Of a stretch of DNA of 64,000 nucleotides, positions 16,105-33,229 are shown one piece after another. Origin of the DNA: an uncultured Pirellulales bacterium (GTDB lineage: Bacteria; Planctomycetota; Phycisphaerae; Sedimentisphaerales; Anaerobacaceae). The stretch covers positions 2,234-66,233 of the forward strand of contig CAZBTJ010000008.1 in assembly GCA_964494325.1 (NCBI GenBank). Reading direction: 5' to 3'. Below the pieces are notes generated by a model. It did no database searches. It was not told the origin of the DNA and saw only the letters and a list, made by a program, of their open reading frames with translations. Numbering within the stretch: position 1 is the first letter of the stretch; each line of letters begins with the position of its first letter. Position numbers and translations under genes: made by a program.

Positions 16105-19100
16105 TTATTTAATCACCTCTGTAGCCAAGGCAGTGTCAGGCTCCGAACGCCCATATGCCTCAACCATCACTCGACTCCAAAAAGTCGTAAAATCATCGAT
16201 CATGAGGTACAAACAGGGTACGAGAATCAGCGTAATCGTGGTGGCAAACAAAATACCAAAACCCAGCGAGATAGCCATGGGAATTAAAAAGCGTGCCTGC
16301 ATGGACGTCTCAAAAATCATAGGCGCCAAACCGCCAAAGGTCGTAAACGTGGTCAGGATAATAGGCCTGAAACGACGGATGCCTGCCTGATGGATCGCAT
16401 CAAAGGCCGTGTATCCCTGGTTTCTATGCAAGCGATTGGCATAGTCAATCAATACAAGTGAGTCGTTGACCACCACACCGGACAAAGCCACAATCCCCAT
16501 CATACTCATAAGACTCAGGGAGTAGCCCATGAGCACATGGCCCAAAACAGCCCCTACAACACCAAATGGAATGGCCACCATCACGATGACAGGCTGGATG
16601 TAACTCTTGAATGGAATGGCCAACATGGCATAGATGGCGAACATGGCCATACCAAAGCCTTTAAACAGCCCTCCCATGCTCTCACGCATATCCGCCTGCT
16701 GACCTTCCCAGTCATATGACAGTCCAGGATATGCTTCGCCCAATTGAGGCAACACGTCCTGCTTGAGTGTCCCAAGGACCTGATTGGTTTCTCTGGCAGG
16801 TTCCACATTGGCAGTGACGGTCACCGTGCGCTGACCTTTGCGGCGAGAGATGGTGGTATAGGCCCTGCCTCGTTCCACAGAGGCCACCTCCATCAATGCC
16901 ACATCGCGTCCCTTGGGTGTACGGATCAAAAGTTGCTCAATGTTGTACTCACTGTCACGCTGCGATTCGGGGAGCTTGACAAACACGCGCACTTCATTGC
17001 GTCCTCGCTGCTGACGCAGGGCCTCTGCCCCATAAAATGAACTTCTCACCTGGCGAGCCACATCCCAGGCGGTCAACCCCAGGCTCAGCCCCTTGGGCTT
17101 CATGGTAAAATTGAGCTGTTGTTTGCCGGGCGTGTACCCATCGTCAATGTCCATAACATTCGAAAAGTCACTCAACTTGGCGGCGAGGATTTCACTCGTC
17201 TTGTCCAGCACGGCAATATCCCGGTGGCTCAATTCGATGGTCAATCCGGCACCAGACCCCGGACCCCCTCGGTCGGCTTCAAACTTAAGGGATTCCAGTC
17301 CTTCAAGCAGTCCCACGTGATCACGCCATTTATTGATCAGCTGCATGGTCCCCAGAGTTCGCACTTCAGGGTCAGTCAAATAAATACTGACCTCCACCTT
17401 ATGCTCATTGATGCTGGTGAAGATCCCTTTGCATAGCTCATCGCCCCCATTATCGCCGACCACTTCTTCGGCCTTCTTAACCAATATGTGACTGAGCGTT
17501 TCAGCCCTGTCCATGGGACTGCCATAGGGCAGTGTCGCCGTGACAACGGCCACATCAGATTCCACACGCGGCATCATCACAATACCAATGCGACCGCTGG
17601 CCACAAAGCTCACGATCACAATCAATATGGCAAACCCGATGGCCACACTAATCTGGCGATATTTGATGCATTGATCCAAAAATGGGCCAAACCGGGTCTC
17701 AACGAAGCGAATAAACCGTTGACTAAATGCCTGCTGTTTGTTGTGCAGATACTGAGCCATGGGATTTCTGCGATTTTTGGGCACATGGGACAGATGGGCC
17801 GGTAAAATGAACAGGGCCTCAATCCATGAAATGCCAAAGACCGTGATCACCACGAGGGGAATCACAATAAAGAACTTGCCCATAATCCCAGGGACAAAAC
17901 AGAGCGGCAAGAAGGCCACCATGTTGGTCAGAATGCTAAATGTCACGGGCAAGGCCACATCTTTGGCACCCTGGATGGCCGCGTCCAGCAGGCTCATGCC
18001 CCGGTTGCGATATTCATAGATATTTTCCCCCACCACAATGGCATCATCCACCACAATCCCGAGGGCAATGATGAAGGCAAACATGGAAATCATATTGATC
18101 GTAACACCCATGCCAGACAAAAATAAGAAGCCGCCCAGAAAGGACGTGGGAATCCCCATGGTGACCCAGAACGCCAGCCTGAATTCCAGGAAGAGCCCCA
18201 GCAGACACAGCACCAAAATCAGCCCCAGAAAGGCGTTGCGTAACAGCAATTCCAAACGCTGGCGATAAATATCCGACATATCGCGTCCCACGGTCCACCC
18301 CACCCCAGGCGGCAGGCGTTCTTCAATCTGTGCCATGGCCTTAAGAGCGGCGTCTGATACACCGATGGGCGTCTGACTGCCCACACGAAATATATTAATA
18401 CCAATCGCACGCTTCCCATTATAAAACGCCACCTTGTCTGTGTCCTGAAACCCTTCGGTCACCTCAGCAATGTCACTGAGATACACAGTACCGCCTCCAA
18501 CTGTGGTAATGATGGGCAGACGCGAAAATTCCTTGGCCCAGTCGCGACGTTCCTTGACACGCAAGAGAATGTCCCCACCTTTTGCCTCGATATACCCCCC
18601 GGGCAATTCAATGGCCGATCTTCGAATGGTATTGGCCACGCCCTGACAGGTCAGATTGTACCGTCTCAGCGTTTCCTGGTTGATCTGGACATGGATCTCG
18701 TAGGTGCGGGCACCGCGAAGTTCGACCTGCGTAATATCCGGATACTGCAGGAGACCGTCACGCACCTGCTCAGCCAGTTCCCGCAAGACCCACTCAGACG
18801 CATCACCATACAACTGAATATCCATCACTTCCCGGCGATGCATAATCATACTAACTTCAGGACGTTCTGCATCTTCCGGGAATGTGACAATACGGTCCAC
18901 CTGTTGCTTAATGTCCTGATACACCTTCTGCTCATTGATACCTTCCAGCAGCTCTATGGTCACAATGCCAATACCTTCGTTGGCAGATGCCTGGATTTCC
19001 TTGATACCATCCAAACCACGCACCGCTTCTTCGAGCACCAGAACAATGCCCTGTTCCACCTCCTCCGGACTGGAGCCTGGATACGGAACCTTAATGACGA

Positions 19101-19266
19101 CCATATCCAGATCAAACTCGGGAAACACCTCTTGCTTGATCGACTTGGCAAACAGAAACCCACCCACAATAAAAATAATCATCAGCAGGTTTGGTGTCAC
19201 GCCATTCCGTGTCATCCAGGCGATCATCCCCTTCGACCCCGTTTTGTGATCTTCATTCAATGTCAT
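16105..19266 (-). CDS. RND efflux transporter permease (AcrB/HAE family)
   Basis: 1053 aa, 12-TM RND architecture. N-terminus WMTRNGVTPNLLMIIFIVGGF...QEVFPEFDLDMVVIKVPYPGSSPEEVEQGI. Follows the MFP and OMF genes in one operon. Confidence 0.9.
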   Translation of the reverse strand: MTLNEDHKTGSKGMIAWMTRNGVTPNLLMIIFIVGGFLFAKSIKQEVFPEFDLDMVVIKVPYPGSSPEEVEQGIVLVLEEAVRGLDGIKEIQASANEGIGIVTIELLEGINEQKVYQDIKQQVDRIVTFPEDAERPEVSMIMHRREVMDIQLYGDASEWVLRELAEQVRDGLLQYPDITQVELRGARTYEIHVQINQETLRRYNLTCQGVANTIRRSAIELPGGYIEAKGGDILLRVKERRDWAKEFSRLPIITTVGGGTVYLSDIAEVTEGFQDTDKVAFYNGKRAIGINIFRVGSQTPIGVSDAALKAMAQIEERLPPGVGWTVGRDMSDIYRQRLELLLRNAFLGLILVLCLLGLFLEFRLAFWVTMGIPTSFLGGFLFLSGMGVTINMISMFAFIIALGIVVDDAIVVGENIYEYRNRGMSLLDAAIQGAKDVALPVTFSILTNMVAFLPLCFVPGIMGKFFIVIPLVVITVFGISWIEALFILPAHLSHVPKNRRNPMAQYLHNKQQAFSQRFIRFVETRFGPFLDQCIKYRQISVAIGFAILIVIVSFVASGRIGIVMMPRVESDVAVVTATLPYGSPMDRAETLSHILVKKAEEVVGDNGGDELCKGIFTSINEHKVEVSIYLTDPEVRTLGTMQLINKWRDHVGLLEGLESLKFEADRGGPGSGAGLTIELSHRDIAVLDKTSEILAAKLSDFSNVMDIDDGYTPGKQQLNFTMKPKGLSLGLTAWDVARQVRSSFYGAEALRQQRGRNEVRVFVKLPESQRDSEYNIEQLLIRTPKGRDVALMEVASVERGRAYTTISRRKGQRTVTVTANVEPARETNQVLGTLKQDVLPQLGEAYPGLSYDWEGQQADMRESMGGLFKGFGMAMFAIYAMLAIPFKSYIQPVIVMVAIPFGVVGAVLGHVLMGYSLSLMSMMGIVALSGVVVNDSLVLIDYANRLHRNQGYTAFDAIHQAGIRRFRPIILTTFTTFGGLAPMIFETSMQARFLIPMAISLGFGILFATTITLILVPCLYLMIDDFTTFWSRVMVEAYGRSEPDTALATEVIK

Positions 19267-19269
19267 ATC

Positions 19270-20532
19270 TTACTCTCCTTGCCCTGCCTGAGGCATGGAC
19301 TGATTCGATTCCAGTGCGATCTCACCGACCTGCTGCAATGGCATCCCTTCAACCGGTGCGGCAATATCGGTCAACACAATCTGCTGCCCATCGGCCAGAC
19401 CACTGACCACACACACCTGCTCTTTCCCTCGAAAACTGGTGACAACAGGTTGAATCTTCAAAGTATTGTCCTCTGTCAACACCCAGACGTTATCCCCGTC
19501 GCGGAGCCATTCCCGTTGCAGGGGAATAACCGACTCAAGAATCTCACCCTGTATTTCCACATCCACTTTGGACCCAAGCAGCAACTTTGGCTTGTCTTTG
19601 TTTTCAGGCAACAAGGCCAGGGGGTCCTTGATAGACACCAACAGACGCGCCATCAAACCATCCGGCTCAATATCACTGAGTAAACGAATCACCACACCTT
19701 CACGCGAGAGGCCAGCCCCCCATGTGTCTGGATCATAAATGGTCACCCTGGAGCCTGTACCGTCCTGTCCGGACGGTGCATTGATCCATTTAAGTTTACT
19801 GACCGGCACAGAGGCTGCAATCCAGTATTCATCTGTTCCCACCAAGGATATCAGGCTCGACCCGGGTGACACGCGTGTACCCAGATCGATTTGCTTCTCC
19901 TGAACCACGGCATTGAAGGGAGCCGCGACCTGGCAACGATTCAAATCCAACTCAGCGCGACGCACGGCTGCCTGAGCCGCTTCCAGAGAGGCCTGCGCCT
20001 CTACCAGATGCGGTTCTCGCAATACCAAAGCCCGATCCTCCTCGGAGATCTCTTCATTGAGCATATCGTATTCCTGCCTGGCAATGGTCTGGTTACCTCG
20101 CTCCAACTCCAGTTTTAAATGAGCCTTGGCCACATCACTCTGTCGCTGCTGCAATGCCAAACGATAGTCACTCGCATCAATGCCCAACAGGGCCTGGCCC
20201 TTGGACACAATACCGCCCGGAATGACATCGGGACTCAGTGTCACAATCAAACCAGAGACCTGAGGACTGAGCGTCACGGCCTGTGCCGGTATCACAGGCC
20301 CTTGAATGTCGTCCACAACAACTCGCACCTGCGTCTGGTTCACGGTCTGCACCTGCACCTTTTTGGCCTGAGACTGAAGAGGCTTGCGTTTGGCCAAGGG
20401 CTTGGTCTTCATTTGAACCACGAAAAATGTGGCCGCCGCCGCAATAATCATAATGGGAATGAACAATTTGACTAAAAAGGCCACTAGCTTTGTACCGATT
20501 CCCGCATTGGTTTCAGATTGTTTGCTCTTCAT
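19270..20532 (-). CDS. RND efflux periplasmic adaptor (membrane fusion protein, HlyD family)
   Basis: N-terminal TM anchor and a coiled-coil hairpin region (RQSDVAKAHLKLELERGNQ...AQAAVRRAELDLNRC). Stop lies 4 nt before the RND permease start. Confidence 0.85.
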   Translation of the reverse strand: MKSKQSETNAGIGTKLVAFLVKLFIPIMIIAAAATFFVVQMKTKPLAKRKPLQSQAKKVQVQTVNQTQVRVVVDDIQGPVIPAQAVTLSPQVSGLIVTLSPDVIPGGIVSKGQALLGIDASDYRLALQQRQSDVAKAHLKLELERGNQTIARQEYDMLNEEISEEDRALVLREPHLVEAQASLEAAQAAVRRAELDLNRCQVAAPFNAVVQEKQIDLGTRVSPGSSLISLVGTDEYWIAASVPVSKLKWINAPSGQDGTGSRVTIYDPDTWGAGLSREGVVIRLLSDIEPDGLMARLLVSIKDPLALLPENKDKPKLLLGSKVDVEIQGEILESVIPLQREWLRDGDNVWVLTEDNTLKIQPVVTSFRGKEQVCVVSGLADGQQIVLTDIAAPVEGMPLQQVGEIALESNQSMPQAGQGE

Positions 20533-20566
20533 AAACTCACCTTATACTATGTTTTCTCGCAGAACA

Positions 20567-21967
20567 TTAGTTGGATAAATAGGCCATGTCTGGACGGTCC
20601 ATATCCCAGGCACCCGCCAGGGCACGACATAAATCAATGCGTCGCTCAATCAGCGCCCGCTGGGCACTCAACTGTGAACGCTCCAATCGCTGCTGTAGTA
20701 CCAGAGAATCCAGCACACGAAGATAATTCCCCATGCCTTTTTTATATCGCTGATCGGTTTGTTGATACGTTTGTTGGGCCAGATTCAACTGCGTTCCCAG
20801 ATTCGCCAAATAGGCCCGTTGATGGGTTTCCTGCGCGAGGGCGTCTTCCACTTCCTGAATGGACACCAACACGGTCTGTTTGTAGGTATGTATGGCCTGT
20901 GACAAAATGGCACGCGTTCGCTCAGCCTCAGCCTCACGCAGATTCGCGTCAAACACAGGCCCTGCCAAACTCGCAGCCAAACTGGCCAGCCAATCGTCAA
21001 ACAGGTCCTCAATCCGAGAGTCAGACGTGGTCAAAGTCCCTGTGAGACTCAGCGAAGGATACTTGTCTGCAATGGCCACAGCCGTGCGTAAGTCAGCCGC
21101 TTGAATCGCGTAAAATGCACTGGCCACATCCGGACGCTTCTGAATGATCTCCAGGGGTACGCCAGTGACAGGCAAGGGTGGCAACTCAATCAAAGCCAAC
21201 ATCTGGTCGGCCCAAGCCTGATCTGGCACACGACCCACCAGCACACAGAGTCGATGCTGCAACAGCTTAACCTGTTCTATAGCCTGAATCATTTGTCCCC
21301 GCGAAGATTCCACCAATTGTTTCTGACGCAACACATCGGGCGCCCCCACCTTGGCATTGCGAAACTGCGTGGTCACAAGAACCAGCACCTTCTTGTTGAC
21401 CTCCAACTGCTCTGCCACCAAAGCCACCTGAAGCTTGCCTTCGGCCAACTGATACCAAGTCTTGGCCACCGTCGCACTTAAAGTGACAGCCGCACCTGCC
21501 AAATCCTGGGCCCTAGCCCGAACATCAGCCAAGGACGCCTCACGACCAGAACGCACCTTATTCCACAGATCTACTTCATAGGAAGCCACCAGGCCACCCG
21601 ACAGACTGGTTGTATATTCCTCAGGCAGACCTGGCTCCCGGCGTGTTCGTGTGGCACCGGCTTGATACCTCACACTCGGCAACAAGGGAGCCCCGGTCTT
21701 GACCGCAATCTGTTCGGCCTGGACCAACCGATCCCATGACGTCTGCAGGGTAAAATTTCCGGCCAAGGCCTCTTCAATCAACTCATTCAATAGAGGATCA
21801 TCCAGAGACAACCACCACTTCTCAGGCAAAACCTCTGATCCTGTGGCTGAAAATGCCTCGGGCACTGCCATAACCGGCGCCACAGGCAGAGACTTAGATC
21901 TCGACCGACATCCAGCCATCCCCCCTATCAGGCCCACACAAAAAATCGATACAATCCAATTTCGCAT
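20567..21967 (-). CDS. Outer-membrane efflux factor lipoprotein (NodT/TolC family)
   Basis: Lipobox-like GGMAGC at the N-terminus. WW..L.D..L..LI..AL..N..L pattern (EKWWLSLDDPLLNELIEEALAGNFTLQ). Two repeated OEP halves. Confidence 0.85.
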   Translation of the reverse strand: MRNWIVSIFCVGLIGGMAGCRSRSKSLPVAPVMAVPEAFSATGSEVLPEKWWLSLDDPLLNELIEEALAGNFTLQTSWDRLVQAEQIAVKTGAPLLPSVRYQAGATRTRREPGLPEEYTTSLSGGLVASYEVDLWNKVRSGREASLADVRARAQDLAGAAVTLSATVAKTWYQLAEGKLQVALVAEQLEVNKKVLVLVTTQFRNAKVGAPDVLRQKQLVESSRGQMIQAIEQVKLLQHRLCVLVGRVPDQAWADQMLALIELPPLPVTGVPLEIIQKRPDVASAFYAIQAADLRTAVAIADKYPSLSLTGTLTTSDSRIEDLFDDWLASLAASLAGPVFDANLREAEAERTRAILSQAIHTYKQTVLVSIQEVEDALAQETHQRAYLANLGTQLNLAQQTYQQTDQRYKKGMGNYLRVLDSLVLQQRLERSQLSAQRALIERRIDLCRALAGAWDMDRPDMAYLSN

Positions 21968-21990
21968 ACAATTACCTCTTTTATTAGCTC

Positions 21991-22647
21991 TCAGCTGTCT
22001 TTAGACAGTTTCGCCCGAATCCCGGCAATGCCAGCCAGGGAAAACTCTGTAATATGATCGGCCAAGCGGTCTGAAAAACCCTCGGCCGCCATAATATCTG
22101 TATTGAACGGATGCTTGGCATGCTTGCCGCGACGATGACTAAATGCAAAACACAGATGCACCACGCTCATGGTACACAAATGGATCTGATCATTCGGCGC
22201 GTCAGGCCCCAATAACTCCTTAATCACCGCATAGGTGTACATCACGACCGGCTGAAGTGCGTCGGCAAACACCTCTTGAATGACCTCCGTAGGATTCGCC
22301 ATCTCCATCAGGAGGATCTGCCCTGCTTCGCCCAATGTGCCCTGATCCAAAACCCGGTGTACATGCGATCGAATCAGCGCCTTCAATTTCTGCTCAGCCG
22401 ACGCACTCTCGGACAATCCCTCATCCAGAGGATGGATCTCAAATGACTTGTCAAATGCCTGTCGCCAAACCTGGCCATACAGTCCATCTTTGGACCCGAA
22501 ATGATAATTTACAGCTGCCACATTTGCGTGTGCAGCCTTACACACCTGTGCGATTGTCGTGTCCTTATACCCCCTCTCAGCAAATACCCGAGCCGCCACC
22601 TCTAACAGTCGCTCACGAGTATCGCACCCATCTTTACGCATCACCAT
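21991..22647 (-). CDS. TetR-family transcriptional regulator
   Basis: HTH TTIAQVCKAAHANVAAVNYHFGSKDGLY. First gene of the efflux operon. Confidence 0.85.
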   Translation of the reverse strand: MVMRKDGCDTRERLLEVAARVFAERGYKDTTIAQVCKAAHANVAAVNYHFGSKDGLYGQVWRQAFDKSFEIHPLDEGLSESASAEQKLKALIRSHVHRVLDQGTLGEAGQILLMEMANPTEVIQEVFADALQPVVMYTYAVIKELLGPDAPNDQIHLCTMSVVHLCFAFSHRRGKHAKHPFNTDIMAAEGFSDRLADHITEFSLAGIAGIRAKLSKDS

Positions 22648-22851: not shown

Positions 22852-23841
22852 ATGTCAGATACCCACAACATTCTTTCAGAGACATCGGAACAACCGCCAG
22901 TGCTGCGTATTCGCCCCGTTCGGAAGGCAATAATTGTGTCAGCATGCTACTTTACAGTGGCCTCTGTGTATATCCTGTTGTCCGGACAGATTGCCGCTTT
23001 GCTTTCCATGTCCGTGTCCGAGCTCGCCAAAGTCGAACAGATCAAAGGCTCTCTTTTTGTACTGACAACGACGGTTCTTCTGTTTGTATTGGTCTTCTGC
23101 ATGTTCAAACGAATTGCTTCAGACGAACAAAAGATTGAGTCGTACAGAGACATATTGATCGCTTCTGAACGCCGCGCTGCAGCCGGACTTTTTGCCTCTT
23201 CTGTAGCCCATGACATAGGGAGTATTCTGACTATCTCCAAACTGGCTACATCGCAACTCAGCACGGGCCCCAGTATCCCGGAAGACAAGCAATATCTGCT
23301 TAAACAGCTGGAACAGGCGAATCAGGCGTTGTTTAACCTGACAGAACGGTTAAGCAAGGCGCCCTCGCAGGAGACAACCGAGCAGTCAGTCAATTTTGAT
23401 TTGGTCACAAAGACCAAAGAAACCCTCAATTTAGCCCGCCTGCACAAGAAACTCATCCACTGCTCACTTGAAATGGACGCCCCGGATACCCTGGACTTCC
23501 GGGGCGATCCCCTGTTAATCCACCAGATGGTCCTGAATCTTCTCATTAATGCAGCCGACGCCACTGAGCAAAAGGGAAAGATTTTTGTCAAAATTCTGGA
23601 ACAGGAACAGGACTGCGTGATTGAAGTACATGATAATGGAACCGGCATCCCCCAGACTGACAGAGCACGTATCATGGAACCCTTCGTCACCACAAAAAAA
23701 GATGGCAGTGGCCTGGGTTTACTCTCAGTCAAAGCCTGTGCAGAAGCCTACAAAGGCAGTGTCAGAATCTCTGATTCACAACTCGGGGGCGTCTGCTTCA
23801 TCATACGACTCAAGAACCCCCTGAGCAAAGAAGCAAGCTGA
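22852..23841 (+). CDS. Membrane sensor histidine kinase (no cognate response regulator in the window)
   Basis: Two N-terminal TM helices. H-box FASSVAHDIGSILT, N-box VLNLLINAADAT, G-boxes HDNGTGIP and GSGLGLLSV. Confidence 0.8.
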   Translation: MSDTHNILSETSEQPPVLRIRPVRKAIIVSACYFTVASVYILLSGQIAALLSMSVSELAKVEQIKGSLFVLTTTVLLFVLVFCMFKRIASDEQKIESYRDILIASERRAAAGLFASSVAHDIGSILTISKLATSQLSTGPSIPEDKQYLLKQLEQANQALFNLTERLSKAPSQETTEQSVNFDLVTKTKETLNLARLHKKLIHCSLEMDAPDTLDFRGDPLLIHQMVLNLLINAADATEQKGKIFVKILEQEQDCVIEVHDNGTGIPQTDRARIMEPFVTTKKDGSGLGLLSVKACAEAYKGSVRISDSQLGGVCFIIRLKNPLSKEAS

Positions 23842-24004: not shown

Positions 24005-24679
24005 ATGTCAAACGGGAGTATTCATGTTATGCTAGACGGTTTATTTGAGAATAATCGGGCGTGGGCCGAAAGAATGAATCGAGAGAATCCAGGCCTATTT
24101 GAACGCCTGGCTCTTCAACAGGCACCCCAGTATCTCTGGATCGGTTGCGCAGACAGCCGTGTGCCAGCCAGCCAGATCCTGGGCGTCGGCCCGGGTGAAC
24201 TCTTTGTCCACAGGAACATCGGCAATACAGTGGTTCATACGGATCTGAATTGCCTGTCCGTGCTCCAATACGCCGTAGACATACTCAAGATCAAAGACGT
24301 GATGGTCTGTGGCCACTATGAATGCGGCGGTATCAGGGCCGCTTTGAACGGTCATCGTTATGGCCTCATCGACAACTGGCTCAGCCACATTCGCGAGGTC
24401 TTCACAAAACATAAATCCCTGCTCACCCCTCTGTCCCCGGACAAACAAATTGAACGCATGTGCGAGTTGAACGTGGCGGAACAAGTGCTCAATGTCTGCC
24501 AAAGCAGTGTCATGGCCGATGTGTGGCGGCGCGGCGAAGAAATCTGTGTGCATGGTCTGATCTATAGTATCCGAGATGGACTGATCAATGCCCCTATGCT
24601 CTCTGTCAAAAACCTGGAGGAGACCCAGGAAGCATACAACAACGCCATTGAGATCATCACTCTGAAATGCCAGCATTAA
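24005..24679 (+). CDS. Beta-class carbonic anhydrase
   Basis: Zinc-ligand motifs CADSRVPASQILG and VCGHYECGG. Length (224 aa) fits the Can/CynT type. Confidence 0.9.
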   Translation: MSNGSIHVMLDGLFENNRAWAERMNRENPGLFERLALQQAPQYLWIGCADSRVPASQILGVGPGELFVHRNIGNTVVHTDLNCLSVLQYAVDILKIKDVMVCGHYECGGIRAALNGHRYGLIDNWLSHIREVFTKHKSLLTPLSPDKQIERMCELNVAEQVLNVCQSSVMADVWRRGEEICVHGLIYSIRDGLINAPMLSVKNLEETQEAYNNAIEIITLKCQH

Positions 24680-25449
24680 TCGATTCGTCCCAACAAACGA
24701 AGCAATCCGTCCAGGAGCGTCAGGGGATGTGGTGGACAGCCAGGTACATAGAGATCCACGGGAATCCATCCTTCTACGCCGTTATAAACTTCTGGATGTT
24801 CCACAAATAGTCCACCACTAATCGCACAGGCCCCCACGGCAATCACCACCTTGGGACTGGGCACGGCCTCGTATGTCTTGATCAGGGCCTCTCGCATATT
24901 CTCCGTGACCGGACCGGTCACCAACAAACCGTCTGCATGACGTGGCGACGCGACAAACTCGATACCAAAGCGTCCCATGTCCCACGCCAGGGTGCCAAGA
25001 ACATTGGCATCCGCTTCGCAGGCATTGCAGCCGCCTGCGGAGACCTGACGAAGTTTCAAGGACCGACCAAATACACGTTGAATCAAGCCATCGTGAACGC
25101 TGGCACAGGCCTCAGACGTCCGATCAACCACCAGCGACTGACGATCTGACACAGCCAGTTGGTGATCCCGCTCAAACCGGATGATCCCGGCAGGACACGC
25201 AGACTCGCAGGCCCCGCAAAATAGACAACGCCCCAGATCCACACACACATGGCGATGATCGCCCTGGCCCGATATGTCAATGGCCCCGGTGGGACAGACC
25301 TCGACACAGGCCGAACAACTCGACACACAGGCCATGGGCTGGATGACTGGCCTGCCTTGAAACCGATCCGGCAGGGTCGGACTTGGCCCATCTGGATAAC
25401 TCAGGGTCTGGTACTTTTGTTGGAATCGTGCTCGCAATATATCAAACAT
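24676..25449 (-). CDS. Fusion of a 2x[4Fe-4S] ferredoxin (HycF/NuoI-like) with a NuoB/HycG-like small subunit
   Basis: N-terminal CSACVEVCPTGAI and CLFCGACESACPAGII. C-terminal NuoB-type cluster ligands GGCNACE, VGACAISGG, VPGCPPHP. Confidence 0.8.
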   Translation of the reverse strand: MFDILRARFQQKYQTLSYPDGPSPTLPDRFQGRPVIQPMACVSSCSACVEVCPTGAIDISGQGDHRHVCVDLGRCLFCGACESACPAGIIRFERDHQLAVSDRQSLVVDRTSEACASVHDGLIQRVFGRSLKLRQVSAGGCNACEADANVLGTLAWDMGRFGIEFVASPRHADGLLVTGPVTENMREALIKTYEAVPSPKVVIAVGACAISGGLFVEHPEVYNGVEGWIPVDLYVPGCPPHPLTLLDGLLRLLGRID

Positions 25450-25460
25450 GTGTCATCCTC

Positions 25461-26930
25461 TCATAAATCATGGCCACAATAGGATAGATTAAAGCTCTTG
25501 TTACACAGTGGAAAATCAGAGATTTGCTGATGACGCAGCGACAGAGCCAAACCAGACCAATTATGGAACGATGGGTCCACCACTTTATAGGCAGCCAGTT
25601 CGCCTTGCGCATCAGTCAAGGCCACGTGACAGATTTCGCCTCGCCAACCCTCGACCAGGGAGACTGACAACCGATCCCCGGCGCACGGTGTCATGGCTCG
25701 CATCACCGGCCCGGCAGGAAGAGAGGCCAACTGATCCTGAATGAACCGCATGGATCGCTTCGCCTCCAGCCATCGCACCATCGCCCTGGCATGCGCATCG
25801 CCTGCAGTACACACAGATACCGGCATCTGAGCCATGGCATACAAGCCGTATGGCAGGTCTCTTCGAACATCTTGCTCCAGGCCACAGGCACGGGCTGCCA
25901 CACCCACCAGACCAATCTCCACGGCCTGCTGTGGTGTCACAATTCCCACACCCTCCAGACGCGCCAGTACGGATGGGCTGTTAAACATCAACTCCACCGC
26001 TGACGTGACATCCTTCTCTACCCGGCCCAGACCCAGGTTGAGTCGCGATACACGTGTCTCATCCAGATCAAACCCCACACCCCCTGGGCGCACAAGCCCG
26101 CGTCCGAATCGGTTGCCGCACAGTTCCGCTGTCAGGTTGAGTACATCACCCCGAATCCGTCCACAGTAACTTTGCGTGGGTAAAAATCCCACGTCACCGG
26201 CCAGGGCCCCCAGGTCGCCGATGTGGTTGGCCAGACGTTCCAGCTCTGCAGCCACTGCACGAATGGCCTGGGCGCGGGCCGACACGGGCGTGTGACTAAT
26301 CGCCTCGACAAGACGGCTATAGGCCCCGGCGTGGCCAATGGTTGTGTCCCCGGCCAAGGTCTCCATCAGGTGGATACGTCCATTGATCGGCCCTGAGATT
26401 ATGCGGCATTCCACACCACGATGTTGATAGCCCAGCGAGATCTCCAGGTGCGTCACGGTTTCACCGTGACATTGAAATCGAAAATGGCCCGGCTCGATCA
26501 CGCCGGCATGCACCGGGCCGACTGCGACCTCATGGATCTCGGGTCCTGCCACCCGGAAAAAGTCCATCACGCCCACGTGTCCCGAAGAAAACCGCACCGG
26601 CTTGAGCCAGGGATGCCCCTGGGGCAGGATGTCCCATTGCTCATAGATCTCCCGCTCAAACAGGTGGACCTGGGGACACTCATTTGTCAGACTGGGATAG
26701 GTGGCCCCCACATCAGTCCAGACCAAGTCGAGTTTCCCGGCATGATCACGGGCCAGCACCACCAGGAGTCTGCGCGTGTCTGCCACAGGCACCACACATA
26801 GGCAAACCACCCTGGCACCGGCTGCCACGGCCCCGATCAAGGACCGACGAAACACGGCATACGACACCCGTGGAATATAAGTAACATCCACGACCAGGCC
26901 ATTGGTCAGGGTACAAAAAGTCGTACTCAT
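25461..26930 (-). CDS. NuoC+NuoD / HycE-like 'large subunit' lacking the canonical NiFe-binding cysteines
   Basis: Homology blocks AAELERLANHIGDLGALAGDVGF and DPSFHNWSGLALSL. Where the L1 motif is expected it reads METLAGDTTIGHAGAY; the C-terminus reads SDFPLCNKSFNLSYCGHDL. Start set to MSTTFCTL at 26930, where TGA and ATG share one nt with the upstream gene. Confidence 0.8.
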   Translation of the reverse strand: MSTTFCTLTNGLVVDVTYIPRVSYAVFRRSLIGAVAAGARVVCLCVVPVADTRRLLVVLARDHAGKLDLVWTDVGATYPSLTNECPQVHLFEREIYEQWDILPQGHPWLKPVRFSSGHVGVMDFFRVAGPEIHEVAVGPVHAGVIEPGHFRFQCHGETVTHLEISLGYQHRGVECRIISGPINGRIHLMETLAGDTTIGHAGAYSRLVEAISHTPVSARAQAIRAVAAELERLANHIGDLGALAGDVGFLPTQSYCGRIRGDVLNLTAELCGNRFGRGLVRPGGVGFDLDETRVSRLNLGLGRVEKDVTSAVELMFNSPSVLARLEGVGIVTPQQAVEIGLVGVAARACGLEQDVRRDLPYGLYAMAQMPVSVCTAGDAHARAMVRWLEAKRSMRFIQDQLASLPAGPVMRAMTPCAGDRLSVSLVEGWRGEICHVALTDAQGELAAYKVVDPSFHNWSGLALSLRHQQISDFPLCNKSFNLSYCGHDL

Positions 26931-28402
26931 CACAGCATCCCCCCACAGGTCGCGGCGGCGTGCAGAACCCGGTCCAGCCCCGCAGGGACCATCAGGCCCA
27001 ACCCCAAGACCACGGCCACCAGGGCCAATAGAGGCCACACCGAATCAGGAGGCTCTGTCTGCATGATCGTCTCAGACGGCGCCGGGCCAAAGACCATGGC
27101 CAGGACGGCACGCATCATCACCACAAACACCATCCCCAGACCCAGCAGATACAGTCCTGCCGAAATCCAGTGACCGGTCTGAACCGCGCCCTTTAGAATC
27201 GTGAGTTCGCTTAGGAACAGGCCAAAGGGAGGTGACCCAGTAATAGCCAGGATGCCGATGAGCCAAAACACGGCCGTGACAGGCAACCGCTTGATCAGTG
27301 CGCTGGTGCCCTGAATCTCCTTGGTCTGATACGCCGCCAGGATATTGCCCGCACACAGGAACAGCAGGGCCTTGGTCACCGAGTGATTGACCGTGTGCAA
27401 CATAGCCCCATAACCGGCCACTCCGCCCAGGCCCACACCCAGGGCGAGGATCCCCATGTGCTCCACACTGGAATAGGCCAGCATGCGTTTGTAATCAGTC
27501 TGCACGATCATCAGGGCTGCGGCCACACCAATGGAGAGCAAACCAAAGCCCACCAACAGATCACCACTGAACCGACCCAGATGGGCCGCCACCATGACCG
27601 AGTGACTTCGCAGGATGCCCATGAATGCACAGTTCAACAGGGCCCCGGACAACAGAGCCGAGACCGCAGAGGGGGCCTCACTGTGGGCGTCGGGGAGCCA
27701 GGTATGCATGGGGACCAGTCCCATCTTGGTGCCGTATCCCACCAGGCACAGGAGAAATCCGGCCTTGAGCCAGGTGGTATTGAGGGCCGGCGCATGTGAC
27801 AGGAGTGTTGACAGAGTCAAGTGTACCGTCTGCTCGGAGTGCGACGCAGCCACGGCAAAGAAAAAGTTACCCAACAGGGCCAGGGCAATACCGACCGAAC
27901 AGATCAACAGGTATTTCCAGGTCGCTTCCAGACTGCGATGATGCCGGTGAAATCCAATCAAGGGCGCACTGGCCAGGGTCGTAGCCTCCACAGCCATCCA
28001 CAACAGACCCAGGTGACGGCTCACCAGGACGAGTGTCATGGAGGCGAGAAACAACAACAGACACCCCACGAACCGGGCTTCAGGCGCATTGGAAAATAAT
28101 ACGCCCTCTTCGAAATCGCGTTCGACTCGGTGTACAGCTTCACGCCTGAGATAGCCCACACTATACACAGCCACCACCAGGAACAGGCCCGATGTCACGC
28201 TCAGAAACAATAGCGACAGCGCGTCGATGCCAAGCCAGGCATGGGCCTCTGGCGTAAGGGGCTGGGTCCAGACCCAACCGACCAGACCGGCATGCACGCT
28301 GGCCGTGACCACAAGCAGGATCGATCTCGCGACAAAGCCGCGTATGACCCAGCTCAGCAGTCCCGCCATGACGGGCATCAATATCATCATCCAGATGAGC
28401 AT
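26930..28402 (-). CDS. Antiporter-like membrane subunit (HyfF / NuoM-NuoN / MrpD family)
   Basis: 490 aa, about 14 TM helices, proton_antipo_M-like core (WLPDAHSEAPSAVSALLSGALLNCAF). Operon context. Confidence 0.8.
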   Translation of the reverse strand: MLIWMMILMPVMAGLLSWVIRGFVARSILLVVTASVHAGLVGWVWTQPLTPEAHAWLGIDALSLLFLSVTSGLFLVVAVYSVGYLRREAVHRVERDFEEGVLFSNAPEARFVGCLLLFLASMTLVLVSRHLGLLWMAVEATTLASAPLIGFHRHHRSLEATWKYLLICSVGIALALLGNFFFAVAASHSEQTVHLTLSTLLSHAPALNTTWLKAGFLLCLVGYGTKMGLVPMHTWLPDAHSEAPSAVSALLSGALLNCAFMGILRSHSVMVAAHLGRFSGDLLVGFGLLSIGVAAALMIVQTDYKRMLAYSSVEHMGILALGVGLGGVAGYGAMLHTVNHSVTKALLFLCAGNILAAYQTKEIQGTSALIKRLPVTAVFWLIGILAITGSPPFGLFLSELTILKGAVQTGHWISAGLYLLGLGMVFVVMMRAVLAMVFGPAPSETIMQTEPPDSVWPLLALVAVVLGLGLMVPAGLDRVLHAAATCGGML

Positions 28403-28403
28403 G

Positions 28404-29051
28404 TCAATCCCTCAAAACGGACAATTGGTCCGTATCAATATGGTCAAATTCCCGGTTGATGTGGTTGATCGTAATACCCATCACAAACACGCCCACCAAC
28501 ACATCCAGCAACACGCCCATCTCCACGAGTAGGGGTTCCTGCAACGCAAAGGCGATGCCAAAGGCCCAGATCCCATTCTCCATGACCAGATACCCGAGCA
28601 CCTGAGTGATCGCCTTTTTGCGTGATACAATTAGAAACAGACCCGTCACGATCGTGAACAAACCAGTGGCAATGAGCAGGGTCTGGCACGGCAACTCGGA
28701 CAGGGCCAAGCGGTCTGCCATAGAGAAACACACAGCCAGCATGGCCAGCCCGATCAGGCCGGACAGGGAGAATCCCACAAAGGGCACCACTTCCCGGCTG
28801 GTATTGCATTGCCGCAAAGAACGAAAGAGTAACCACGGCAGCAATCCGGCCTTGATAGCCACGCTAGACAAGACGATCAGGATCAACTCCACACCCAGGT
28901 CGCTGCCATGCTGCAAAAATGCAATCAATCCCAGGAGCACGGCCTGCTGAGCCACGGTCTGGATGCAGGTGCCCAATCGACTGGTGCACAGCAACCGCAG
29001 GTTTAACAGAATGACCAGTACAGCCGTAACATCCATCCAGGTCGCCATCAC
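28404..29051 (-). CDS. Small membrane subunit (HyfE-like)
   Basis: 215 aa, about 7 TM helices. Sits between the NuoH-like and HyfF-like genes as in hyf-type operons. The call rests mostly on context. Confidence 0.65.
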   Translation of the reverse strand: MMATWMDVTAVLVILLNLRLLCTSRLGTCIQTVAQQAVLLGLIAFLQHGSDLGVELILIVLSSVAIKAGLLPWLLFRSLRQCNTSREVVPFVGFSLSGLIGLAMLAVCFSMADRLALSELPCQTLLIATGLFTIVTGLFLIVSRKKAITQVLGYLVMENGIWAFGIAFALQEPLLVEMGVLLDVLVGVFVMGITINHINREFDHIDTDQLSVLRD

Positions 29052-29960
29052 TTACCTCATCACCAAGATCAAAGAAACAAGACTCAACACCAGACCAATG
29101 GACAGGAGTTGCGGCACATGCAGCAGACGCAGTCTCGCCATGGTCGACTCCATAATCCCCACCACCACGGCAATCACGCCGATACCCACCAACCCGATAA
29201 GCCCGTCCACCACGACCATCCCCGTGCGAATCGGAATCAGCACACCGACCAGCAAGGCACTGAAAATCCACAACTTGATTGCCGCGCCATACTGAATCAT
29301 GGCCAGGTCCGGCCCACTGTGATCCAGCACCATCACCTCGTGGATCATGGTTAACTCCAGGTGCGTGTTGGGATCATCCACCGGCATCCTGGCATTCTCC
29401 GCCAGAAGCACAATCATCATGACGGCCGAAACCAGGGGCAGGACCATAGGGGCTGTGCCCGCCATGGCCAGAGTGCCGTACATACCCTCCAAGGACAACT
29501 GCCCAGTCAATTTGCACAGAGCGGCCAGGGCCAGGATCAGGCTCGGCTCGGTCAGTGCAGAAAAGAAGACCTCCCTACTGGCACCCAACCCTTCAAAGGC
29601 AGAACCCGTATCCATGGCCGCCAAAACCGTCAGAAATCGACCCACTCCCAACAGATAGGCCATCAATAATAAGTCCCCTGAAAAACTCACGCAGGCCCCA
29701 AATCCTGTCAAGGGAACAAACAACAGGGCCATAACCACCGCAGCCAAGGTTCCCATGGGACCGATTCGAAAGACCCAAGTCGTGGTTCGGCTATACACCG
29801 CCCCCTTGCGCAGCAGTTTGAACAGGTCATAATACAACTGACACAAAGGCTGGCCCCGACGACCGGCAAACCGGGCCTTGACCCGATTGATGATACCCAG
29901 CAACAAGGGCGACAAGGTCATGGCGAGGAAAACGTGACTCAGACCCGTGACATAGTACAT
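29052..29960 (-). CDS. NuoH / HycD (HyfC)-like membrane subunit
   Basis: 302 aa, 8 TM helices. LGIINRVKARFAGRRGQPLCQLYYDLFKLLRKG matches the N-terminal pattern of HycD/NuoH proteins; AENARMPVDDPNTHLELTMIHE matches the conserved loop. Confidence 0.8.
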   Translation of the reverse strand: MYYVTGLSHVFLAMTLSPLLLGIINRVKARFAGRRGQPLCQLYYDLFKLLRKGAVYSRTTTWVFRIGPMGTLAAVVMALLFVPLTGFGACVSFSGDLLLMAYLLGVGRFLTVLAAMDTGSAFEGLGASREVFFSALTEPSLILALAALCKLTGQLSLEGMYGTLAMAGTAPMVLPLVSAVMMIVLLAENARMPVDDPNTHLELTMIHEVMVLDHSGPDLAMIQYGAAIKLWIFSALLVGVLIPIRTGMVVVDGLIGLVGIGVIAVVVGIMESTMARLRLLHVPQLLSIGLVLSLVSLILVMR

Positions 29961-29963
29961 CGT

Positions 29964-31952
29964 TTACCTCATCTTCCAAATAAACAAGACTAGAATCGTA
30001 ATTGCAATATAAAGGACATAGAGTTGGTTGCGCCCCTGTTGAATGCACCGAAGCATCCCTGCCAAACGTGCGACCAGAGCAAATAAAGGTCGATAGCCCC
30101 GCTCAAGAAAACAGTCCTTAATGTCAGTGTGCAATGAAGCCTGAATCGGGAATAATCCTTCCGGGTCACATCCATGCCGTTGCGGTCGAAAGAAGGCGTG
30201 AAACCATGCCACAACCGGCCATACAAACGATGAAGCCGTATATTGCATCCGTGCATTCGGGGCGGTGAAACCGCAGTCCCACGTGGGGGCCTGTCGAACC
30301 GTACGTTGTGACAGCAGACGCTGACGTATCCCAGCCAGCAGCCCGACCAAGCCTAAAAGCCCCACAGCAGCCAGGCTGATCCACGCCAAAGATCTAACCG
30401 GCAAGGCCGTGCCATCCAAAGCGACAGGATCAATCTGACCGGCCAACAAGGTCGCCATCACAGGCTTGATACCCTGCACCACAAACGGGCCAAGAAGCCC
30501 AACGGCAATGCACACCGCTGCCAACATCGCCAGAGGCCAGGTCATGGATCGCGGCGACTCATGCACAGAAGAAGCGGTCACTCTGGGCTCGCCCAGGAAA
30601 ATCACGGAAAAGGCCTTGGCAAAACAGGCCGCTGCCAACCCTCCAATCAGGGCCAGCCCCCCTGCAATCAGAACCCCCGCCCAGGCAGTATGGATACCGG
30701 AGGACGTCACCAGAGCAGAGAGTGCCCCCATATAAATCAGAAACTCACTGACAAATCCGTTCAATGGAGGAAGACCGGCAATGGCTGCCGAGCCCACTAG
30801 AAAGGTGGTACCTGTCACAGGCATGCGTTTGAGCAGGCCGCCAAGTCGATCAATTTCCAAGGTCCCGGTGGCATGTTGTATGCTACCGGCCCCAAGAAAC
30901 AATAAACTCTTGAAGATCGCATGATTGAATACATGCAAAAGCCCGCCGGCAAACCCCAGAATCGCCCAGGACAGATGGCCCGTACCAATCCCCAATACTC
31001 CCAGCCCCAGTCCCAGCGTAATGATACCGATATTTTCCACGCTATGATATGCCAACAGGCGCTTGAGATCGTGCTGCACCATGGCCAGCAAGACCCCCAG
31101 GATACCCGAGATCACACCCACTGCAATCAAAGTCCAGCCCCACCAAACCGCAGGGGCGCCTAGCAAAGTCAAGACGCGCAGCAGACCGTAGATCCCGGTC
31201 TTGATCATGACCCCACTCATCACAGCAGAGACGTGGGACGGTGCCGCCGGGTGAGCCAGAGGGAGCCACACATGCATGGGCATCAAACCCGCCTTTGTGC
31301 CGAACCCCACCAAGGCCAGGACAAACGCCCACCCCGCGATGGTCGGCGTGGCCGCAGCCATGGACTCAAAATCCAAAGAACCCTGTGTACCGGACAACAA
31401 CACAAACATGGCCAACAGGCAGGCTGTACCCAGGTGCGTTGCCACCAGATAAGTCCAGCCGGCCTCCACCACCTCCTGGCGTTCATGCTCGTAAATAACC
31501 AGAAAAAAGGAGGTCAGGGACATGCATTCCCAGGCCACCAGAAACAGCACCGCATTACTCGCGGTCACCACCAGCCACATACTGACCAACAGCCCGTTGA
31601 ACCAGAACCAACTCAGACCCAGATTTTTTCGTTTCGCATCATGCTTGAGGTAACCATAGCCATAGACCGATGCCACCAATGACACCACAGCAATCACCGC
31701 CACAAAAAAACCGGATAACGGATCCATGGCCAGTTGAAAAGCCCCCATGGGCACGGGCCAGGCCCAGCTCAAAGACCACGCTGAATGGATCATCCCATCC
31801 AGCCCTGAAACCAAAGCCATCCCACTTGCCAATACCGCAGTAGCCGCGCCCAACCCATGCGCCACGCCACGTCGCCCCAGACAAAGACACAAAAAACCAC
31901 CAACCCCACACACCGCCAGGGCCACCAAAAACACCGGATATCCCAAACTCAT
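29964..31952 (-). CDS. Large antiporter-like membrane subunit (HyfB / NuoL family)
   Basis: About 660 aa, more than 15 TM helices, proton_antipo_M core (HVWLPLAHPAAPSHVSAVMSGVMIKTGIYG). Start set to MSLGYPVF at 31952, which forms an ATGA overlap with the upstream EIIA gene stop. Confidence 0.8.
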   Translation of the reverse strand: MSLGYPVFLVALAVCGVGGFLCLCLGRRGVAHGLGAATAVLASGMALVSGLDGMIHSAWSLSWAWPVPMGAFQLAMDPLSGFFVAVIAVVSLVASVYGYGYLKHDAKRKNLGLSWFWFNGLLVSMWLVVTASNAVLFLVAWECMSLTSFFLVIYEHERQEVVEAGWTYLVATHLGTACLLAMFVLLSGTQGSLDFESMAAATPTIAGWAFVLALVGFGTKAGLMPMHVWLPLAHPAAPSHVSAVMSGVMIKTGIYGLLRVLTLLGAPAVWWGWTLIAVGVISGILGVLLAMVQHDLKRLLAYHSVENIGIITLGLGLGVLGIGTGHLSWAILGFAGGLLHVFNHAIFKSLLFLGAGSIQHATGTLEIDRLGGLLKRMPVTGTTFLVGSAAIAGLPPLNGFVSEFLIYMGALSALVTSSGIHTAWAGVLIAGGLALIGGLAAACFAKAFSVIFLGEPRVTASSVHESPRSMTWPLAMLAAVCIAVGLLGPFVVQGIKPVMATLLAGQIDPVALDGTALPVRSLAWISLAAVGLLGLVGLLAGIRQRLLSQRTVRQAPTWDCGFTAPNARMQYTASSFVWPVVAWFHAFFRPQRHGCDPEGLFPIQASLHTDIKDCFLERGYRPLFALVARLAGMLRCIQQGRNQLYVLYIAITILVLFIWKMR

Positions 31953-32638
31953 TTTGACGTACTGAGCGAGAGGCGTTCTTCCAGGCACTTGGCTTGGTCG
32001 AGGATTGCCTCACGCATCCCTTTCTCCAAAATGGCCTTGGAAAACTCCGGGTCCTGCAAACCAAAAGCAAGCCTGGACAACAGGCTCAGGTGGGCCTTGA
32101 CTGTGGGACTGACGATTGTGAATAGAATGTCCACAGGCTTGCCATCCAGGGCTCCGTATTCGACTGGCTCGTCTAGAAAACAGAGGGTCACTGCAGGCTT
32201 GGCAATATGTAAAACAATGGGATTTCGTGCGTGGGGAATGGCAATGCCTCCACCAATGGCTGTGGATCCCAAGGTTTCGCGAGCCAGCAAGACCTCATGC
32301 AGAAACTTCCGATCCACTTCATCAGGCAACGGCATAACTGCCACAACCCGGGCCAACACGGAAGCCTTGTCCTTGCCCCCCACACGGTAAAAAATGCCGC
32401 CCGATCCCAGTGCTTCGGACAGAGTCGGTACAGGCAACTCCTCATCATCCGATTCCACCAGGATCTGGGGCGACACCGCAATACGATGACTCGTAGCCCA
32501 ATCCAAAAGTTCTGACCGATTGAACCGATGCTGCCCACTCATCTTATAGACGGGCAGCTTGTCCTGAGCCACCCACCGATACACGGTCTTCTCAGATACA
32601 CCAAATAAGTGAGCGACATCGCGAACACCCAGTCTCAT
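31949..32638 (-). CDS. Excisionase/MerR-type HTH fused to a PTS EIIA(Ntr/Fru, type 2) domain; first gene of the complex operon
   Basis: HTH VRDVAHLFGVSEKTVYRWVAQDKLPVYKMSGQHRFNRSELLDWA. EIIA-2 phosphorylation-site region TAIGGGIAIPHARNP. Start chosen at ATG 32638, which has AAGGTGA 5 nt upstream. Confidence 0.75.
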   Translation of the reverse strand: MRLGVRDVAHLFGVSEKTVYRWVAQDKLPVYKMSGQHRFNRSELLDWATSHRIAVSPQILVESDDEELPVPTLSEALGSGGIFYRVGGKDKASVLARVVAVMPLPDEVDRKFLHEVLLARETLGSTAIGGGIAIPHARNPIVLHIAKPAVTLCFLDEPVEYGALDGKPVDILFTIVSPTVKAHLSLLSRLAFGLQDPEFSKAILEKGMREAILDQAKCLEERLSLSTSK

Positions 32639-32700: not shown

Positions 32701-32842
32701 CCAAACACTGCCCATAAAGTCAAGCGCCTGAGCACCAAAAAAGTAAAATTAAAGAGTTTTCCTACAGCCTGACCGCAAATACAGCTAAAATACCCCCCAG
32801 AAGTTAAACGAATCTAAAATCCAGAATCTAAAATCTAAAATG

Positions 32843-33229
32843 AAAAGAGTGGGTTGGGCGATCGCTGGTCACCATGGTGGCTGGAGGAAAGTCCGGGCAG
32901 GACAGGGCACGGTGGTGGCTAACGGCCACCGGGGGCAACCTCAGGGATAGTGCCACAGAAAATATACCGCCAATGGCCTTCGGGCACAGGTAAGGTTGAA
33001 ATGGTGCGGTAAGAGCGCACCGCAATCCTGGCAACAGGATTGGCAGGGTAAACCCCACCGCCTGCAATACCAAGCAGCTGGCCGAATCTTCGGATTCATG
33101 ACTCGGCCCGGGTCACAACAGCGGGTAGGTAGCTTCCCTTCGGGGAGAGCCGACTGGCAACAGTCGGTCCAGATAAATGATCGCCATCCCTTTGGGATAC
33201 AGGACCCGGCTTACAGACCCACTCTTTTC
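32843..33229 (+). ncRNA. rnpB: RNase P RNA, bacterial type A
   Basis: Universally conserved P4 strand GGAGGAAAGTCCGGGC (about 32887), GGTAAGAGCGCACC, GGGTAAACCCCACC, and 3' P4 strand ACAGGACCCGGCTTAC. P1 pairs aagagtgggt (5') with acccactctt (3'). Length about 387 nt. Confidence 0.95.

Follow-up and report, generated by a model that had tools for sequence, protein, structure and literature searches.

Replacement of all four [NiFe] cysteines in a large subunit assigned to an Ehr-type membrane complex of an uncultured Planctomycetota bacterium

Within a 64,000-nucleotide (nt) stretch of contig CAZBTJ010000008.1 from the genome of an uncultured Pirellulales bacterium (GCA_964494325.1), the whole of which is referred to below as the window, we analysed a gene whose product resembles the catalytic subunit of group-4 [NiFe] hydrogenases and in which all four cysteines of the metal site are replaced. 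The gene almost certainly encodes EhrL, the large subunit of an Ehr-type (energy-converting / Ech-hydrogenase-related) membrane complex, and taken as a whole it is probably best explained as part of a nickel-less Ehr lineage descended from group-4 [NiFe] hydrogenases. The cysteine loss is real but ordinary, since the Ni-Fe site is lost in every Ehr member; the replaced cysteines are a defining, already published trait of Ehr and Hyq proteins and are not peculiar to this gene, which is one more member of a known, very common family. The name Ehr is said to go back to Coppi 2005, and Marreiros et al. 2013 reportedly widened it to a class termed 'energy-converting hydrogenase related'. Absence of both CxxC motifs from Ehr/Hyq proteins is already in print (PMC10284858, PMC3357923), the residues coordinating Ni and Fe are described as missing in Ehr in the cited passages of PMC6349859, and ehr and hyq are treated in PMC4758237 as subtypes lacking canonical Ni-Fe ligands. 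The function of Ehr complexes without CxxC motifs is given as not known in the passages cited from PMC10284858 and PMC6349859, and our literature searches found no paper on the biochemistry or structure of an Ehr complex.

The gene and the two segments that occupy the place of the metal-binding motifs are located as follows.

25461..26930, minus strand: EhrL, a fused NuoC-like and NuoD/HycE-like large subunit of 489 amino acids (aa) without [NiFe] cysteines (open reading frame (ORF) translation, Pfam)
26331..26363, minus strand: N-terminal replacement motif ETLAGDTTIGH, residues 190-200, substituting for E-R-x-C-G-x-C-x3-H, with A193 and T196 at the cysteine positions
25464..25505, minus strand: C-terminal replacement motif CNKSFNLSYCGHDL, residues 476-489, substituting for D-P-C-x-x-C, with S483 and G486 at the cysteine positions (read from the DNA)

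In the HMMER alignment with HycE (7z0s_E), 'metlagdttigh' lies ungapped under 'sdrvcgicgfah', placing A193 and T196 on the first cysteine pair, and towards the C-terminal end 'ksfnlsy' lies under 'gsldpcy', so that S483 falls on the third cysteine. When EhrL is aligned by MAFFT with natural group-4 hydrogenases and NuoD sequences from genomes of the same phylum, G486 falls on the fourth cysteine and all four equivalences are confirmed. A193, T196, S483 and G486 are therefore the [NiFe] cysteine positions of EhrL, each of them replaced, as a preliminary description of the window had claimed from the letters alone; the comparison covers HycE, MbhL and Nqo4 together with natural group-4, 4f-like and NuoD sequences. 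The peptides quoted in that description are likewise present in the translation (METLAGDTTIGH at residue 189, ELERLANHIGD at 229, DPSFHNW at 452, SDFPL at 471 and SFNLSYCGHDL at 479), and the two non-canonical cysteines that it placed nine residues apart correspond to the family-specific C476 and C485. The motifs of the sequence classes compared read as follows.

Ordinary group-4 hydrogenases of the same phylum: N-terminal motif ERICGICS.SH, C-terminal motif DPC.SCT.R
Two 4f-like hydrogenases of the same phylum: N-terminal motif ERICGVCAASH, C-terminal motif ELCYSCTDL
EhrL of the window: N-terminal motif ETLAGDTTIGH, C-terminal motif NLSYCGHDL
NuoD of the same phylum: N-terminal motif DRMNY.SPM.N, C-terminal motif NIIAAELDR

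The replacement residues are strongly conserved. Among the 120 best database homologues of EhrL (56-100% identity, mostly ~60%), 99 share the C-terminal 14-mer CNKSFNLSYCGHDL unchanged, 119 have C485, and all 120 have Ser483 and Gly486. The pattern E-x3-G-x5-H is matched by 119 homologues, none of which has a cysteine at either ligand position; the first position is Ala in 115 and Ser in 4, and the second is Thr or Ser. In a 24-sequence EhrL alignment with a mean column identity of 64%, residues E190, T191, A193, G194, D195, H200 and C476-G486 are invariant, as are six cysteines (154, 256, 271, 434, 476 and 485). The replaced positions are thus some of the best-conserved in the family alignment, in agreement with the earlier proposal of an active-site change and not general decay, and the new pocket motif is, judging from this conservation, under strong purifying selection. 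Pseudogene decay, or an error in sequencing or assembly, has a negligible chance of being the cause of the cysteine loss: no frameshift or assembly fault was seen in the 489-aa frame, which is open, full-length and ends as 99 of the 120 homologues do, the protein aligns end to end with its homologues, the same residues recur in hundreds of independent genomes, and the gene junctions are translationally coupled. We consider this explanation refuted.

The EhrL frame runs on the minus strand from an ATG at 26930 to a stop at 25463-25461. A longer alternative with a GTG start reaches 27038, overlapping the upstream gene, and is unsupported, as homologues have lengths of 478-537 aa and align over ~100% of the 489-aa form. 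Against Pfam, EhrL matches PF00346 (Complex1_49kDa) at 5e-40 and PF00329 (Complex1_30kDa) at 2.3e-4, the latter with 22.1 bits lying just below the 22.5-bit cut-off, and has no match to PF00374 (NiFeSe_Hases) at E <= 0.001. Solved chains matched by HMMER are E. coli HycE (7z0s_E, 1.1e-37), MbhL (6cfw_L, 2e-33), Thermus thermophilus Nqo4 (2fug_4, 5.4e-31) and MbsL (6u8y_L, 1.5e-18), and HycE 7z0s_E is also the top match of a Foldseek fold search (TMq 0.80). An AlphaFold2 (AF2) model built from the 24-sequence alignment is of good overall confidence, with a pLDDT of 77.9 and a pTM of 0.83. Group-4 [NiFe] hydrogenases (HycE 7z0s, Pyrococcus furiosus MbhL 6cfw) are thus alike in fold to EhrL, provide its best sequence matches among solved structures and have a membrane module of the same kind as Ehr; EhrL differs from them in the loss of the four metal-binding cysteines, the absence of a PF00374 match and, as set out below, the absence of HypD dependence.

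EhrL lies within a translationally coupled operon of seven genes, in the order regulator, EhrA, EhrB, EhrC, EhrD, EhrL and EhrS, of which the other six are listed here.

31949..32638, minus strand: first gene of the operon, a regulator with HTH_17 and phosphotransferase-system (PTS) EIIA-2 (PtsN-like) domains (PF12728, 1.2e-13; PF00359, 4e-23)
29964..31952, minus strand: EhrA, HyfB/NuoL-like antiporter-type subunit (NF005086, hydrogenase 4 subunit B, 1e-186; PF00361, 1.1e-53)
29052..29960, minus strand: EhrB, HyfC/NuoH-like membrane subunit, 302 aa (PF00146, 1.7e-30)
28404..29051, minus strand: EhrC, HyfE-like membrane subunit, 215 aa (NF008556, hydrogenase 4 membrane subunit, 5.8e-23; PF00420, 7.8e-6)
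26930..28402, minus strand: EhrD, HyfF/NuoM-N-like antiporter-type subunit, 490 aa (PF00361, 1.1e-52; hydrogenase 4 subunit F models)
24676..25449, minus strand: EhrS, 257 aa, with an N-terminal 2x[4Fe-4S] ferredoxin-like (NuoI/HycF-like) domain and a NuoB-like domain (Fer4_7, 9.7e-11; Oxidored_q6, 4.2e-28)

The ATG of EhrL and the stop codon of the upstream EhrD overlap by one base, and the EhrL stop is followed by 11 nt, including GAGGA, before the EhrS start. The likely ATG of EhrA is at 31952, within a frame open to a GTG at 31988, a choice that rests on the median homologue length of 660 aa and the position of M13 in the translation. For the regulator the likely ATG is at 32638, within a frame open to a TTG at 32704, and a promoter-like site (32723-32694) precedes the gene; its stop apparently overlaps the likely EhrA start by 4 nt (ATGA), as deduced from coordinates and translation and not from the junction DNA. 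The regulator retains an 'AIPHA' histidine block in its translation.

EhrS matches both NuoB and the formate hydrogenlyase Fe-S subunit in NCBIfam, and each of its 12 Fe-S ligand cysteines (C141, C144, C208 and C238, plus eight in the N-terminal 2x[4Fe-4S] domain) recurs in 40-45 of 46 sequences, which upholds the claim that the NuoB-like partner retains its [4Fe-4S] ligands. EhrS is accordingly predicted to hold three Fe-S clusters, forming a complete three-cluster wire. The predicted membrane arm has two retained antiporter-type subunits; EhrD aligns best with MbhH (6cfw_H), with identities concentrated in blocks around E138, K225 and K343, which are antiporter-type charged residues. In a neighbourhood sample of 80 related loci, of which many are truncated where a contig ends, EhrA was detected by tblastn in 77, EhrB in 70, EhrC in 74, EhrD in 78, EhrL in 80 and EhrS in 74, with the six-gene order conserved. 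A homologue of the EIIA regulator was found in 42 of these loci, mostly directly upstream of EhrA and in 31 cases at an identity of at least 43%; Pfam confirmed its identity for the 7 neighbours examined. At one related locus (L046), a phosphoenolpyruvate-utilising Enzyme-I-like gene lies directly upstream.

Homology to group-4 hydrogenases and NuoD, the lack of CxxC motifs, and antiporter-like, NuoH-like and NuoB-like partners together place the complex in the Ehr family. The Geobacter Ehr cluster (GSU0739-45: EhrA-1, EhrB, EhrC, EhrD, EhrL, EhrS) has the same six subunit types in the same order as the window and likewise a large subunit without CxxC motifs; in G. sulfurreducens, EhrA-1, EhrC, EhrL and EhrS from this cluster are reported as abundant in formate-grown cells (PMC7894505). 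Full-length identities of 54-56%, with the same gene order, were obtained between the window EhrL and those of Geobacter argillaceus (L041) and of Geobacter sp., Geobacteraceae and Pelobacter metagenome-assembled genomes. By identity and gene order, as seen in G. argillaceus and the metagenome-assembled genomes, the window complex appears orthologous to the Geobacter type example. Unlike the window, the Geobacter-type loci L024, L036 and L041 carry the EIIA regulator and a second EhrA copy on the opposite strand, and L036 and L041 have ~880 base pairs between EhrL and EhrS.

The family is widespread. A scan for the motif pattern CNKSFNLS against contigs of one genome per species returned at least 599 matches, of which at least 592 encode an EhrL relative. 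Among the matches listed, relatives belong to Planctomycetota, Verrucomicrobiota, Kiritimatiellae, Geobacter/Pelobacter/Desulfuromonadales, Holophagae/Geothrix, Thermoanaerobaculia, Spirochaetota, Elusimicrobia, Chlamydiota, Omnitrophota and others. Also identified in the same phylum were two nickel-type proteins (L094 and L095, in genomes G275 and G049) that read ERICGVCAASH and ELCYSCTDL at the metal-binding motifs and have the EhrL-specific blocks DFPLxNKSF and GPxHAGxIEPGHFRF; together with ELERLxNH, these blocks are common to EhrL and 4f-like proteins, and the two proteins resemble the group 4f of published classifications. They are the nearest nickel-type relatives found, scoring ~370-375 bits against the family profile versus 686-872 for true EhrL. 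A third cysteine-less variant (L096, in genome G219 of the same phylum) reads AEMVSGDSAIGH and NLSYAGNDL, without C485 and H487. To judge from these motifs, L094, L095 and L096 together look like steps of a transition from hydrogenase to Ehr.

Hyq, the 'endo-hydrogenase' of N2-fixing alphaproteobacteria described from Azorhizobium caulinodans (hyqRBCEFGI; PMC2650096, PMC2930871, PMC3357923), is related more distantly. We compared the window with the hyq operon of one Rhizobium plasmid, which likewise comprises seven genes in the order regulator-B-C-E-F-G-I and encodes in HyqG a fused NuoC-NuoD protein without CxxC motifs. HyqG is 36% identical to the window EhrL, has the motifs GRTSGDSTVAY and CNKSFNCSYSGHDL, and has cysteines at 259, 491 and 497. 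The two proteins have in common the derived G-D-[ST]-T and C-N-K-S-F-N-x-S-Y-x-G-H-D-L motifs, including window C256 and C476, which correspond to HyqG cysteines 258/259 and 491. Of the three conserved HyqG cysteines (258, 491 and 497), the third falls on Leu482 of the window EhrL; conversely, window C485 is a Ser in HyqG, whose second C-terminal cysteine lies three residues earlier. Across the three subtypes compared (the Ehr clade, one Hyq and the variant L096), C476 is kept throughout, and the second C-terminal cysteine is at 485 in the Ehr clade, at 482 in Hyq and absent from L096. Further differences are found in HyqI, which unlike EhrS has 177 aa and no 2x[4Fe-4S] domain, and in HyqR, a 106-aa helix-turn-helix protein that unlike the window regulator lacks EIIA.

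The source genome (5.9 Mb in 292 contigs, 87.7% complete) has a cluster of hypF, hypD, hypE, hypA and hypB (contig 79; 7084-12945 of L091), hypC being too small for the ORF list and outside the hyp gene search. No PF00374 hydrogenase and no [NiFe] large or small subunit was found in this genome, nor a second NuoB-like or NuoD-like gene or any antiporter-like gene beyond EhrA and EhrD. A hyp cluster without a hydrogenase client raised the possibility that Ehr is served by the Hyp system, which we examined among 301 genomes of the phylum, calling EhrL at E <= 1e-200; all EhrL-bearing genomes other than the window's own are at least 90% complete. EhrL occurs in 27 of the 301 genomes; HypD was found in 10 of these 27 and not found in 17, which leads us to reject that possibility and to conclude that Ehr needs no Hyp-made cofactor. 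Relatives with hyp genes pair them with ordinary [NiFe] hydrogenases. Since 11 of the 12 other genomes of the same order have PF00374 matches and the source genome is incomplete, the missing [NiFe] client is probably an assembly gap. The genome also encodes a pyruvate:ferredoxin oxidoreductase of 1202 aa, Rnf/Nqr-type membrane genes and two [FeFe]-hydrogenase large subunits of ~594 aa, these genes being spread over contigs 145, 10, 18 and 101. From this gene content, the host metabolism appears to be anaerobe-like and ferredoxin-based.

These observations suggest how a nickel-less Ehr lineage may have arisen and how its complex may work. An ancestor of the family would have had all four metal-ligating cysteines replaced, its pocket being rebuilt as a strictly conserved polar motif, E-T-x-A-G-D-T-T-x-G-H together with C-N-K-S-F-N-L-S-Y-C-G-H-D-L; with its ligands replaced and the pocket rebuilt, the protein could no longer hold the Hyp-made Ni-Fe(CN)2CO centre. 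A redox-coupled ion pump is the likeliest role for Ehr, and we put it at even chances. Under this proposal, a low-potential donor would pass electrons to the two [4Fe-4S] clusters of the EhrS ferredoxin domain and on to the NuoB-type cluster, the donor most likely being reduced ferredoxin, given the pyruvate:ferredoxin oxidoreductase, Rnf and two [FeFe] hydrogenases of the genome. From there, electrons may move to a different, non-NiFe site in EhrL, as the preliminary description considered plausible, and would reduce an acceptor at the EhrL/EhrS/EhrB junction, the reaction being coupled to H+ or Na+ movement via EhrA and EhrD. Protons, a quinone or a sulfur/thiol compound are candidate acceptors for such a pump, each of them individually unlikely.

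Several points weigh against this account. The identities proposed for donor, acceptor and pumped ion all rest on inference. In a Pfam scan of 140 of the 149 nearest-neighbour ORFs from the 80 loci (the 9 longest being omitted), no donor or acceptor gene recurred beside the operon, and only the EIIA regulator did so; clustering of 1073 flank ORFs returned, apart from the operon and antisense artefacts, no family in more than ~3 loci. In the AF2 model, pLDDT is below 50 at the beta-hairpin region 110-168 and at the C-terminal motif 469-489, the confidence of its pocket segments being low. Finally, the Hyq genetics of PMC2930871 and PMC3357923 points to H2 turnover, which is a poor fit with a site devoid of Ni-Fe.

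These Hyq genetics bear on an alternative that we regard as quite unlikely, namely that the complex is a working hydrogenase with a non-canonical site, Ni-Fe-free or differently ligated, turning over H2 at the remodelled pocket, perhaps with C476/C485, D195 and H200/H487. Nodule H2 evolution was reported as 0.32-0.36 in single hup or hyq deletion strains versus 27 µmol per g per h in the double deletion (PMC2930871), and hyq is described as being behind ~80% of the H2 evolved under microaerobic conditions (PMC3357923). An organism with hyq and without hup/hyp still recycles H2 according to the authors of PMC2930871, their data not being presented there. The derived motifs and operon order common to Hyq and EhrL, and the HypD-independence of the family in the 27-genome test, would suit a hydrogenase of this kind. 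However, EhrL has none of the metal ligand sets that known hydrogenase types use, a cell-free assay 'is not at hand' in the words of PMC3357923, and the Hyq authors themselves regard a Ni,Fe site in HyqG as 'uncertain, if not unlikely'. The Hyq evidence is also distant from the window, given the identity of only 36%, the small subunit without a ferredoxin domain and the different placement of the second cysteine. Hyq is nif-regulated, whereas no nitrogenase was detected in the source genome, which already has two [FeFe] hydrogenases.

A bolder variant treats the conserved pocket (E-T-x-A-G-D-T-T-x-G-H, C476, C485, H487, D488) as a new kind of catalytic centre, made without Hyp. We hold this to be improbable; in its boldest form the centre would turn over H2, in line with what the genetics of Hyq suggests, and in a milder version it would be a cysteine-based acceptor, that is, a thiol/disulfide or persulfide site fed by the NuoB-type cluster.

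Comparison with complex I raises a different prospect. NuoD/Nqo4 has a fold homologous to that of EhrL, no NiFe cysteines, and NuoB-, NuoH- and antiporter-like partners, so that all three quinone-chamber subunit types (NuoD-, NuoB- and NuoH-like) are present in Ehr, and NCBIfam NuoD models are the best-scoring named families for EhrL. A minimal complex-I-like ferredoxin:quinone oxidoreductase, with menaquinone bound otherwise than in NuoD, could be built on such a framework, and a quinone was proposed as partner of Hyq by Sprecher et al. (PMC3357923). A second NuoD-like match in 23 of the 27 Ehr genomes may be taken as a hint of quinone-based respiration. We nonetheless judge this explanation unlikely. 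The preliminary description had asked whether the His/Tyr quinone pair of NuoD is present, and it is not: counted from Nqo4 H38 and Y87, the ligands of the quinone head group, the corresponding EhrL residues are Ile145 and Gly194, two same-phylum NuoD sequences agreeing on both positions, and the complex-I quinone ligands are thus absent from EhrL. Moreover, EhrL scores under every NuoD cut-off (top model NF004739, 193.5 bits vs 360), and the Ehr operon, unlike complex I, has no NADH-oxidising module. Neither MenA nor MqnA/D of the futalosine pathway was found in the source genome, which is only 87.7% complete and has a partial cytochrome bd gene, and Ehr is reported from lineages without an identified quinone synthesis pathway in the cited part of PMC6349859.

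The genes flanking the operon bring in a further possibility, that redox chemistry has been lost, EhrL is a structural relic, and the complex serves as a transporter or sensor, either for ions or related to CO2/bicarbonate. The gene next to EhrS is the following.

24005-24679, plus strand: beta-class carbonic anhydrase (PF00484, 2.8e-50; NF007756, above cut-off), convergent with EhrS, the 3' ends overlapping by 4 nt

A convergent carbonic anhydrase is found likewise in the Planctomycetaceae locus L038, and in L059 the gene directly upstream encodes a SulP-type anion transporter. The operon regulator has a PtsN-like EIIA domain, and proteins of the PtsN-like EIIA family control K+ homeostasis in proteobacteria. 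These associations are rare, however: tblastn with the window enzyme placed a carbonic anhydrase at 1 of the 80 related loci, so that it is adjacent in 2 of 81 counting the window, SulP was found in 1 of 80, and the 140 nearest-neighbour ORFs examined with Pfam include one Pro_CA and one SulP. The carbonic anhydrase is therefore rejected as a conserved partner and kept as a weak lead. Conservation of all 12 Fe-S cysteines in this clade is hard to explain without electron transfer, and Rfam detected no riboswitch or leader RNA in the window. We regard a transporter or sensor stripped of redox chemistry as quite unlikely.

The only RNA matched in the window was a bacterial RNase P RNA of class A (32846-33229, plus strand, 297.5 bits, full length), which separates the Ehr operon from the next gene. 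Beyond the carbonic anhydrase, a 329-aa ORF resembling a histidine kinase (22852-23841, plus strand) adjoins a resistance-nodulation-division efflux set (16105-22647, minus strand). Its inner-membrane pump has 1053 aa, its periplasmic adaptor 420 aa and its outer-membrane factor 466 aa, and a TetR-like ORF of 218 aa precedes them; these assignments are judged from the translations.

As a single gene, the EhrL of the window carries little weight, the missing nickel ligands of the family having been in print since at least 2012. The Ehr family as a whole is very common (at least 592 species in one scan), strongly conserved and placed, in evolutionary terms, where hydrogenases and respiratory complex I meet. 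Our results narrow the options for its function, in that there is no Hyp dependence, the complex-I quinone ligands are absent and the three-cluster electron wire is complete in this clade. The constancy of C476, with a second cysteine that shifts or is lost across the three subtypes, also provides concrete residues to mutate. Should H2 turnover at a new centre prove true, Ehr/Hyq would represent a further, unrecognised class of hydrogenase distributed over hundreds of bacterial species.

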